Source: Candidatus Micrarchaeota archaeon (lineage in GTDB: Archaea; Micrarchaeota; Micrarchaeia; Burarchaeales; Fermentimicrarchaeaceae). From it: DNA of 57,978 nucleotides. Below the pieces are notes generated by a model. The model was not told where the DNA came from. It searched no databases and worked only from the letters and a program-made list of their open reading frames with translations. The DNA lies in contig JACCLF010000036.1 of NCBI GenBank assembly GCA_013425405.1, positions 1 through 57,978 on the forward strand, read 5' to 3'. Shown one piece after another: positions 28,439-55,102 of this stretch (position 1 is its first letter; the number at the start of each line of letters is the position of its first letter). The position numbers were made by a program, and so were the translations under genes.

Positions 28439-28615
28439 TTTTTTGTGGCATACCCACTTAAGAGCTTCCTGCTTCATTGACGCTGCTATTGCAGCATCTC
28501 AATCCAGTCCTCATGGCTTTCATTGCAGGCGTTACTTCCCGTCTGCCCGACGGTAGTTTATACAGATGTTTCCTTATGCTGAGCATCTATCCCGCCGCTT
28601 AATTGCTTCCTATCA

Positions 28616-28624
28616 TTTTTTTTT
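28616..28624 (+). terminator. oligo-T (T9) candidate archaeal terminator downstream of rpl12
   Basis: Run of nine T, 178 nt after the rpl12 stop. Confidence 0.35.
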
Positions 28625-28729
28625 AAGAAAGGGTTGGGAGATGCCAGCGAGTTTCCTTAGCCGGCAGCTCCCATAAGGGGCAATCAGAACCCCAACGGTC
28701 CAGCCATTCCTCCTTTCCACCGGTCATAC

Positions 28730-28855
28730 CTAGCTAACATCAAGCACCAGCCTATCCCCTACCCTCTGTATCACGGTGGAAACATTATTCATCTTCAGCC
28801 TCTCGGCAAGAGCCTCTACTTCATTCAGAGTCAGTTTCGCAATGTCCATTTTCAT
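28730..28855 (-). CDS. small protein Y1 (41 aa), paralog of 54488..54661
   Basis: MKMDIAKLTLNEVEALAERLKMNNVSTVIQRVGDRLVLDVS. ATG is 6 nt after a GAGGTG SD. The first 5 codons lie inside the 91-bp identical block. Confidence 0.55.
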   Translation of the reverse strand: MKMDIAKLTLNEVEALAERLKMNNVSTVIQRVGDRLVLDVS

Positions 28856-28932
28856 CTCAATCACCTCTTTACTGCTAAGAGGTGGTTTTCCAGGGTATTT
28901 AAATAGGCGGAAGGGGGGTAGCTTTCCAGTGA
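28842..28932 (-). repeat. 91-bp block 100% identical to 54648..54738
   Basis: Base-by-base comparison found no mismatch. Identity stops abruptly on both sides. Confidence 0.95.
28862..28905 (-). promoter_or_regulatory. promoter of Y1: TATA box plus 8-bp/7-nt-spacer palindrome covering the SD
   Basis: Minus strand reads TATTTAAATA (28896-28905), then CACCTCTT-AGCAGTA-AAGAGGTG (28862-28884), then ATTGAG-ATG. CTGGAAA direct repeats lie at 28887-28893 and 28923-28929. Confidence 0.6.
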
Positions 28933-29057
28933 TCCTAATCCGCATCCTCCAGGAGCTCTTCAGCCCTGCGACCTCTCAAAACACTTACTGCCCCTCTCTT
29001 AGAAAAGACGCCAGGGCTACTTGTTCCCTTTAACTTACAGTGAAAAAGAAAAAGCAC

Positions 29058-29420
29058 TCAGGCCAGACTTCTTTTCTTAAGTTCTTCCTGAAGTTCTGTG
29101 ACTTTCTTTGCCCTTTCAGCATCAATTCTTTCCAAATTCTTCCTTGCATTATCCAGCTCCTCGTGCAAGATTGGGCTGCTGGGTTTTATGTTCTTCTCCT
29201 TAAGAACCGGCAGCATTCCATCCGCCATCTCTTTTGGCTTCAGCTCCTTGCTTCTGTCAAAGAGCCCCAGTTTGGTGACAATATCCATGACAGCATTTCT
29301 CTCGTTCCTTTCTCTTATTATATCGCCGAATACATCTTTACTTCCTTCTTTCCCTCCTGACGTTTTTTTATCGGCATCTCTTTCCTCTCGAGTTTTGAAT
29401 ATATCTTTAATGCTAGACAT
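29058..29420 (-). CDS. small charged helical protein X1 (120 aa), paralog of 54754..55044
   Basis: Aligns with X2 over ~90 aa (MLPVLKEKNIKPSSPILHEELD..ERIDAERAKKVTELQEELKKRSL). Family not recognised. Confidence 0.6.
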   Translation of the reverse strand: MSSIKDIFKTREERDADKKTSGGKEGSKDVFGDIIRERNERNAVMDIVTKLGLFDRSKELKPKEMADGMLPVLKEKNIKPSSPILHEELDNARKNLERIDAERAKKVTELQEELKKRSLA

Positions 29421-29458
29421 AAAATCACGTATAATTTATGCACAATATAATTTATAAA
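29421..29458 (-). promoter_or_regulatory. promoter of X1 (TTTATAAA, near-leaderless)
   Basis: TTTATAAA at 29451-29458 lies 30 nt upstream of the ATG. The 19 nt including the ATG (29418-29436) are identical to 55042-55060. Confidence 0.55.
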
Positions 29459-29503
29459 CACATTCCATAACCGAATTTGTATGCAGAGAGAGTTCCAAAT
29501 GAT

Positions 29504-54487: not shown

Positions 54488-54661
54488 CTATATGTTCTCA
54501 ATTCCCAGCTCAACCCTGGCAGGCCTTATTGAAGTGGATTTGCATACAAGCAGCAGAGTCTCCCCGTTCCTCTTAACAAAGGAAGTTATGTTCCTCCTGT
54601 CCAGGAACGATATGAGCTGATCAATTTCCTCATCCTTGAGCTTGCTTATGTCCATTTTCAT
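54488..54661 (-). CDS. small protein Y2 (57 aa), paralog of 28730..28855
   Basis: MKMDISKLKDEEIDQLISFLDRRNITSFVKRNGETLLLVCK... The same SD/ATG context as Y1, inside the identical block. Confidence 0.55.
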   Translation of the reverse strand: MKMDISKLKDEEIDQLISFLDRRNITSFVKRNGETLLLVCKSTSIRPARVELGIENI

Positions 54662-54738
54662 CTCAATCACCTCTTTACTGCTAAGAGGTGGTTTTCCAGG
54701 GTATTTAAATAGGCGGAAGGGGGGTAGCTTTCCAGTGA
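54648..54738 (-). repeat. 91-bp block 100% identical to 28842..28932
   Basis: See 28842..28932. The offset between copies is 25806 nt, in the same orientation. Confidence 0.95.
54668..54711 (-). promoter_or_regulatory. promoter of Y2: TATA box plus palindrome (copy of 28862..28905)
   Basis: TATTTAAATA at 54702-54711; palindrome at 54668-54690. Confidence 0.6.
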
Positions 54739-54753
54739 AACTAGAAACAGCCT

Positions 54754-55044
54754 CTACTCAAGCTTTCTCTTCCTAAGTTCTTCCTGCAGTTCTTTAATCT
54801 TCGTGGCTTTCTGAGGATCTATTCTCTCCACAGTACCTATCATTCCTTCAAGTTGCTCGTGCAATACTTGACTGTCTGGCCTAATGTTGTTCTCCTTAAG
54901 GATTGGCATAAGCCTTTGTATCTCCGCTTTAACGTCTAGTGGTTTTTCCTTATTTGTAAGCTCCATACCCCTAACTATATCGAATACCTTATCTCTTTCC
55001 TTTCCTGCGCCTATTATTTCATCCAAAATACCGGTTTTACCCAT
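54754..55044 (-). CDS. small charged helical protein X2 (96 aa), paralog of 29058..29420
   Basis: LMPILKENNIRPDSQVLHEQLE..ERIDPQKATKIKELQEELRKRKLE. Confidence 0.6.
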   Translation of the reverse strand: MGKTGILDEIIGAGKERDKVFDIVRGMELTNKEKPLDVKAEIQRLMPILKENNIRPDSQVLHEQLEGMIGTVERIDPQKATKIKELQEELRKRKLE

Positions 55045-55082
55045 AAAATCACGTATAATTCATGTATCATATTCTTTATAAA
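55045..55082 (-). promoter_or_regulatory. promoter of X2 (TTTATAAA, near-leaderless)
   Basis: TTTATAAA at 55075-55082, with the same 30-nt spacing to the ATG as at X1. Confidence 0.55.
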
Positions 55083-55102
55083 TATACGCCACGATAAAAA
55101 TT

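Follow-up and report, generated by a model that had tools for sequence, protein, structure and literature searches.

The Two Y Loci

The window analysed in this study is the whole 57,978-nt contig C40 of a metagenome bin from a Candidatus Micrarchaeota archaeon (945,707 bp in 58 contigs, 47% G+C). Two small genes on its minus strand, here called Y1 and Y2, have the same 91 bases at their 5' ends. Y1 (28730-28855; 41 aa, MKMDIAKLTLNEVEALAERLKMNNVSTVIQRVGDRLVLDVS) is convergent with rpl12, and Y2 (54488-54661; 57 aa) is located between hsp20, which precedes it, and a Zn-ribbon membrane protein gene and trpS, which follow it. The two copies of the identical block (28842-28932 at Y1 and 54648-54738 at Y2, both on the minus strand) consist of the promoter, the leader and the first five codons of these two anciently duplicated genes, whose proteins are 39% identical. 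The sequence separating rpl12 from the stop codon of Y1 (28439-28729) is conserved with G002, the closest relative of this genome, in which the counterpart of this spacer also carries a copy resembling a tnpB 3' end/omega-RNA region.

Orthologues of both genes were found at the same syntenic sites in the seven genomes compared, i.e., this genome (G000), all five other species of the genus (G001-G005; Ca. Fermentimicrarchaeum) and one member of the sister genus (G006). The Y1 site is convergent with rpl12-rpl10-rpl1 in all of them, and the Y2 site is always upstream of the Zn-ribbon membrane protein gene and trpS and in most cases directly after hsp20. Wherever visible, the two sites are on one contig, in the same orientation and 23-42 kb apart. 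Single-copy Y homologues (MK[MIL][DN][IV]...) are present in many other families of Micrarchaeota. Since both paralogs occur in the sister genus and single-copy homologues occur elsewhere, the Y duplication predates the split between Ca. Fermentimicrarchaeum and its sister genus, and the Y family is older still. Variable sites in the genes were mostly at third codon positions (12/10/26 for the first, second and third positions of Y1 and 10/8/28 for those of Y2), and Y1 and Y2 are therefore real coding genes, members of a Micrarchaeota-wide family of small proteins.

No Pfam family scored above threshold for Y1, Y2 or their upstream neighbours X1 and X2, and the Y homologues in the databases are all annotated as "hypothetical" and have no Pfam domain. 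AlphaFold predicts Y2 to form a beta-alpha-beta-beta domain, with a pLDDT of about 92 for residues 1-41. This model had no match in the PDB at E<0.01 and resembled only generic beta-alpha-beta-beta mini-domains. A full-text literature search on the genus name returned no title or abstract dealing with the Y family or with the upstream promoter element described below. A longer ORF of 71 aa (28730-28945), which runs through the Y1 promoter, was considered and rejected; at the Y2 copy a TAG closes its frame, and the ORF overlaps the TATA box. For annotation purposes, such longer ORFs running through the promoter are not genes.

In this genome X1 (29058-29420, minus strand; 120 aa) and X2 (54754-55044, minus strand; 96 aa) are the upstream neighbours of Y1 and Y2, with the stop codon of X2 16 nt before the block, and the two X proteins are 43% identical. 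The sequence-only reading speaks of two cassettes, but a two-gene X-Y cassette was not conserved among the relatives: X adjoins Y in this genome and otherwise at a single site, the Y1 locus of G006, and is missing beside Y in G001-G005, and in four genomes (G002, G003, G005 and G006) the block comes directly after the hsp20 stop codon. The conserved unit is thus the block plus Y, and X1 lies outside it. Over 50 nt, the promoters and leaders of X1 and X2 (29418-29467 and 55042-55091) show 80% identity, and the 19 bases immediately preceding the ATG are the same in both; against 43% identity of the proteins, this is a weaker version of the pattern at the Y block.

Extent and Edges of the Identical Block

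The full identity of the two copies, already reported from the sequence, was confirmed at every base (91/91), and an exact match of this length cannot be due to chance in 58 kb. The sharp edges reported with it were also found. The bases flanking the block mismatch at once on one side (CAGTTTCGCA versus GAGCTTGCTT) and on the other (TCCTAATCCG versus AACTAGAAAC); past the block, the coding DNA of Y1 and Y2 shows 47% identity over 109 nt, and on the upstream side the identity is about 23% in the first 100 nt. Upstream of TCACTGG the two loci have nothing in common, and their flanks are locus-specific and orthologous across species. The genome-wide search for more copies of the 91-mer, proposed earlier as a check, was run on the whole 945,707-bp assembly and gave no third full copy.

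An assembly artefact, i.e., a collapsed or chimeric repeat, has to be considered in a bin of 58 contigs with an estimated contamination of 6.5%. However, six relatives that were assembled independently, one of them a closed genome, have the same synteny on all four flanks, and four other assemblies show only 0-4 differences between their two copies, each with its own species-specific sequence. This explanation is therefore extremely improbable. The possibility that the copies are the attL and attR sites of an integrated element was rejected as well; the 26-kb interval holds the housekeeping genes nadC and trpS, and both sites are ancestral.

Structure of the Block

On the minus strand the block is composed of TCACTGGAAAGCTACCCCCC-TTCCGCCTA-TTTAAATA-CC-CTGGAAA-AC-CACCTCTT-AGCAGTA-AAGAGGTG-ATTGAG-ATGAAAATGGACAT, and the coordinates of all parts were verified. 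It begins with a 20-nt upstream promoter element, TCACTGGAAAGCTACCCCCC (28913-28932 in copy 1 and 54719-54738 in copy 2), the core of which recurs upstream of TATA boxes. After a spacer of 9 nt follows the TATA box, TTTAAATA (28896-28903 for Y1 and 54702-54709 for Y2), which is unchanged in all 14 Y promoters. An 8-bp palindrome, CACCTCTT-AGCAGTA-AAGAGGTG (28862-28884 and 54668-54690), overlaps the Shine-Dalgarno sequence, GAGGTGAT, in its right arm (28860-28867 and 54666-54673). The 3' end of the block is formed by ATTGAG and the first five codons, ATG AAA ATG GAC AT, corresponding to the conserved N-terminus MKMDI.

The heptamer CTGGAAA occurs twice in the block, 36 nt apart (28923-28929 and 28887-28893, the latter corresponding to 54693-54699 in copy 2), as stated in the sequence-only reading. 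The presence of the pair was confirmed, but a significance of the second heptamer was not: downstream of the TATA box it is found only in G000 and in one copy of G002, and other sequence takes its place in G001 and G003-G006. It is probably non-functional, and a role of the pair as a repeated operator was ruled out by this lack of conservation.

In leaderless genes with the same promoter module, the distance from the TATA box to the ATG is 21-26 nt, in agreement with archaeal promoters, in which the TATA box is located about 21-27 nt upstream of the transcription start. On this account transcription of Y probably starts in the palindrome loop (around 28870-28875), as judged from the geometry. 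The leader would then be about 15-20 nt long and contain the Shine-Dalgarno sequence, and the left arm of the palindrome, which begins about 10-12 nt after the TATA box, would not be transcribed. If transcribed, the palindrome is predicted to fold with -11 to -13 kcal/mol in this genome and with -8 to -18 kcal/mol within the genus. Its right arm is invariant, and the changes in the left arm are one-sided, three of them being G-U compatible and one disruptive. All members of the genus keep the stem while the loop varies from 4 to 8 nt, and this is easier to reconcile with a nucleic acid hairpin than with a dimeric operator of rigid geometry. It could act either as a DNA element at the melting region or as an RNA hairpin in read-through transcripts.

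These features lead to the question of whether the whole sequence could be constrained as a structured RNA, i.e., a Shine-Dalgarno-sequestering hairpin, a thermosensor or a small RNA gene. Known Shine-Dalgarno-sequestering hairpins and RNA thermometers have an anti-Shine-Dalgarno arm as the palindrome does, and hsp20, a small heat-shock gene, adjoins one of the Y copies. The three compatible changes in the left arm are all C-to-T, the stem is retained despite the changes in loop length, and in other families, where Y is single-copy, the leaders contain other hairpins that cover the Shine-Dalgarno sequence. The Y palindrome differs from the known hairpins, however, in that its left arm, 10-11 nt past the TATA box, is probably upstream of the start and hence not transcribed from this promoter, and in that no double compensatory change was found among the aligned genomes. 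The short-RNA reading of the block offered earlier received no support from Rfam, in which only three tRNAs of the whole window reached the gathering threshold. Moreover, a hairpin would account for 23 nt and not for 91. A structured RNA is thus a very unlikely cause of the identity.

Block and Coding Sequence in Seven Genomes

The block (92 alignment columns) and the next 109 nt of coding sequence were aligned for the 14 gene copies of the seven genomes. Of the 92 block columns 53 were invariant, compared with 23 of the 109 coding positions that follow codon 5. Variable columns at which both paralogs agree in every genome were found ten times in the block and never in the coding sequence, and conversely fixed differences between the two paralog types numbered 25 in the coding sequence and none in the block. 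Within genomes, Y1 and Y2 differ at 53-64 of the 109 coding positions, whereas their blocks differ at 0 (G000 and G005), 2 (G004), 3 (G002), 4 (G003), 16 (G006) and 18 (G001) of the 92 columns. In five of the seven genomes (those with 0, 0, 2, 3 and 4 differences) the two blocks of one genome are more similar to each other than to their orthologues in other genomes. Between genomes, the mean block identity is 82.6% for the same and for the other paralog type alike.

The trees gave the same picture. Y1 and Y2 were reciprocally monophyletic in the coding tree, with support of 100 for both, whereas in the block tree the paralog label needs seven changes, which is the maximum. A block tree in which Y1 was held monophyletic was rejected (log-likelihood difference 45, AU p=0.007). 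The block of G005 is similar to that of G000 in having two 100% identical copies of 91 nt with the same boundaries, but the sequence is its own. In a pair of copies from one metagenome sample (M1), the block differs at 17 of 91 positions. Both genes are intact in the lineages with diverged blocks (G001, G006 and the M1 pair).

Probable Gene Conversion Between the Two Promoters

The block groups by genome and the directly adjacent coding sequence groups by paralog, and this is the signature of gene conversion. Accordingly, the comparison of orthologous loci, which had been suggested for separating conversion from constraint, came out in favor of conversion. The alternative of a constrained cis element proved correct in part: the 53 invariant columns show that constraint exists, but constraint alone gives only about 80% identity, as seen in G001, G006 and the metagenome pair. 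Since the lineages without recent conversion are about 80% identical, constraint fails to explain 100%. Drifted blocks occur together with intact and conserved genes, and therefore the function requires only about 80% block identity. Based on these results, the block very probably represents concerted evolution by short-tract gene conversion acting on a functionally constrained core.

Several changes are common to both copies of one species. For example, both Y promoters of G004 contain the off-consensus CTGGCAAG, whereas CTGGAAAG is retained in the seven further copies of the upstream element in that genome. Similarly, the same stem-breaking C-to-G change is present in both palindromes of G002, and the loop indels of G003 and G004 are found in both copies within each genome. 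Such changes are unlikely to have been selected twice. The third codon of Y1 also provides information on the direction of the last event. It is ATT (Ile) in G001, G002, G004 and G006 and ATG (Met), the state of Y2, in G000, G003 and G005, and the latter are exactly the genomes in which the blocks are homogeneous through the start codon. As codon 3 of Y1 took the state of Y2 (I3M), we infer that in the last event in G000 Y2 was the donor and Y1 the recipient, at any rate for the 3' end of the block. The closest relative, G002, keeps ATT, and the event is thus later than the split between G000 and G002.

It could be argued that purifying selection, with or without co-evolution of a trans-acting factor, holds the two control regions identical in the absence of recombination. 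The 53 of 92 invariant columns across the 14 sequences agree with this explanation, and so does a change that affects whole lineages at the 5' edge of the block. Every copy of the element in G003 and G005 (loci L034-L085) reads TTCAC-CTGG and not TTCA-CTGG, a one-base shift throughout the regulon. This variant is common to all module copies, beyond the Y pair, and suggests that the copies either co-evolved with a factor or were all homogenised; it may thus reflect one of these rather than conversion between Y1 and Y2. However, 16-18 differences are tolerated in G001, G006 and the M1 pair with both genes intact. The off-consensus base of G004, the stem break of G002 and the loop indels would not be expected to arise twice independently, and codon 3 of Y1 has the Y2 state exactly where the blocks are homogenised. 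Purifying selection as the only cause is therefore improbable.

For gene conversion between the Y loci, the following process can be proposed. Short-tract, non-crossover conversion would recur between direct repeats 26 kb apart. The genome encodes RadA (contig C18; 308 bits against the Rad51/RadA family). The invariant functional positions would keep an island of homology alive, and the free positions between them would be homogenised by conversion. Tracts would stop where the homology ends, i.e., at the 5' edge of the element and after codon 5, beyond which the identity of Y1 and Y2 is at the random level. The sharp edges could be explained in this way, since heteroduplex cannot extend where there is no homology. 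A crossover between the repeats would delete 26 kb with trpS and other housekeeping genes. The net effect of the process would be that two diverged paralogs remain under the same transcriptional and translational control. No conversion event was seen directly, and the same tract boundaries in G000 and G005 would be explained only by the argument of the homology island.

Concerted evolution of dispersed paralogs is exemplified by tufA/tufB in bacteria and by the chaperonin paralogs of archaea. Gene conversion has been documented in archaea for Haloferax (PMC11276520) and in bacteria between the rRNA operons of E. coli (PMC8022953). The Y loci resemble bacterial and archaeal gene conversion in that paralogs within a genome are closer than orthologues, the trees of tract and flank are in conflict and a recombinase is present. 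They differ from the known cases in the tract, which is only about 91 nt long and covers the control region and five codons next to fully diverged coding bodies, and in the host, a DPANN archaeon with a reduced genome. Ectopic gene conversion is a known process, and it is the control-region tract of about 91 nt, the saturation of the paralogs and the DPANN genome that are unusual here. The Y loci would provide a clean multi-genome case of promoter-limited concerted evolution in DPANN and of short-tract recombination in reduced genomes, and they would illustrate that conversion is able to keep a single control region for two paralogs of diverged function.

Distribution of the Upstream Element

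The core of the upstream element, CTGGAAAG[C/T]TACCCC, was found 19 times in this genome (at most one mismatch), always 8-11 nt upstream of a TATA box. Across the clade there are 79 distinct copies, and because their position 8-11 nt upstream of the TATA box is fixed, the element was taken as part of the promoter. Its conservation sets in 4 nt ahead of CTGG, at the position where the identical block has its 5' edge. Most likely, judging from its position about 40-60 nt before the start, it is the site of a transcription factor or an element determining promoter strength. It is similar to the activating sites located upstream of the BRE and TATA box in other archaeal promoters (Ptr2- and Lrp-type) in being non-palindromic, in having a fixed distance to the TATA box and in serving a set of genes. 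Compared with these sites, the Y element is lineage-specific and mostly present on insertion sequences, and its function is deduced from position only.

When one genome of each prokaryotic species was scanned for the pattern, the element turned up almost exclusively in Ca. Fermentimicrarchaeum and close relatives, including the closed genome of F. limneticum Sv326, and the module pattern was not found in the IMG/VR viral contigs. In this genus about 20 promoters per genome contain it, most of them belonging to TnpB insertion sequences. The genes downstream belong to two TnpB families (OrfB_IS605, Cas12f1-like TNB and HTH_OrfB_IS605 domains), and the element also drives mini-elements in which the promoter is fused to the 3' end of tnpB (omega-RNA region). 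The other promoters with the element are those of Y1, Y2, a HEPN protein gene, an 89-aa protein gene and an operon of an exonuclease-like gene and radA. Outside the genus, a slightly different element is present once in G009 (another genus of the same family) and once in G015 (another family), in both cases upstream of the single Y, and degenerate CAC[C/T]GG[A/C]A is found upstream of the Y TATA box in further families. Because the sole genome copy precedes the single Y in G009 and G015, the element is old at Y. Its spread took place in this lineage alone, for the most part on insertion sequences, and is later than its presence at Y.

This distribution bears on another possible origin of the block, namely that a mobile promoter cassette, such as a left-end fragment of a TnpB insertion sequence, landed recently and independently before both genes. 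The first 34 nt or so of the block, comprising the element and the TATA box, are indeed common to the left-end promoters of the two TnpB families and the mini-elements, with about 19 copies in this genome, and the left ends of IS200/IS605-family elements (TnpB-only, IS1341-type) have the same 15-20-nt element and TATA box as the Y blocks. However, the similarity to the insertion sequences covers only the stretch from TCACTGG to the TATA box, and the two blocks remain identical further on, through the leader into the coding sequence. The insertion sequence copies drive tnpB with OrfB_IS605 and Cas12f1-like TNB domains, and the Y blocks have neither tnpB nor the right, omega-RNA end nor the upstream sequence specific to the insertion sequences. 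In addition, the block is present at both loci in 7/7 genomes, the single-copy Y of other families already has the element as the only copy in its genome, and no Y1-type transposase was found in this genome. A recent landing of such a cassette at both genes is accordingly highly improbable, and conversion remains the preferred explanation for the identity of the blocks.

The reverse direction of transfer should be considered for the element itself. It is possible, though doubtful, that TnpB insertion sequences of the Fermentimicrarchaeum lineage took over an element once private to Y, giving rise to a lineage-specific regulon of mobile elements, recombinase and Y in which conversion among the short repeats, most clearly between Y1 and Y2, keeps the promoters in step. 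To judge from the distribution of the element, this capture, which would extend to the radA operon, is the more novel lead. If true, it would tie mobile elements and a recombinase to the expression of Y. A lineage-specific promoter element common to host genes, a radA operon and TnpB elements would also offer a handle on the regulation of transcription and the control of mobile elements in organisms without genetics.

The exonuclease-like gene encodes a 196-aa protein with a weak PolB-exonuclease-like match and has a 4-nt overlap with radA at the start codon of the latter. Both genes are under the module promoter at C18:2667-916 and C37:1136-127 and also in relatives (L057 and L046). Through this common module, the recombinase belongs to the same apparent regulon as Y and the insertion sequences. 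The contigs C18 and C37 are near-duplicates (about 96%), which suggests the presence of two strains in the bin.

TnpB loci with the element are located at C8:17278, C8:26225, C8:75036, C9:2144, C9:42909, C36:16601, C45:5098, C48:122, C20:3347 and C56:22542. The two families represented at these loci are the IS605 OrfB type and the Cas12f1-like TNB type. The TnpB genes look leaderless, with the ATG 21-26 nt after the TATA box, and family A has a palindrome, GACGTAAATAACGTC, between the TATA box and the ATG. Module-driven non-coding elements of about 150 nt are of two types, type 1 at C9:10332, C14:13610 and C18:2667 and type 2 at C20:17697, and such elements are also present in relatives (L028, L036, L053, L058, L071 and L081). 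A search of two of the relatives' loci against Rfam gave one tRNA only. The type 1 elements are homologous to the 3' end of tnpB and terminate in ...GCATG[C/T]CAC. From their sequence they look like stand-alone omega-RNAs expressed from the left-end promoter (mini-IS).

Two further genes are driven by the module. The 89-aa protein (MPIEEEIVHWWKD...; C42:27832, and L031, L035, L042, L065, L066 and L074 in relatives) is without a Pfam domain and has at least 64% identity across many genera of Micrarchaeota, with the module promoter in this genus. The HEPN-domain protein (254 aa; C35:10016) has an internal start, MKMMDI, which resembles the N-terminus of Y.
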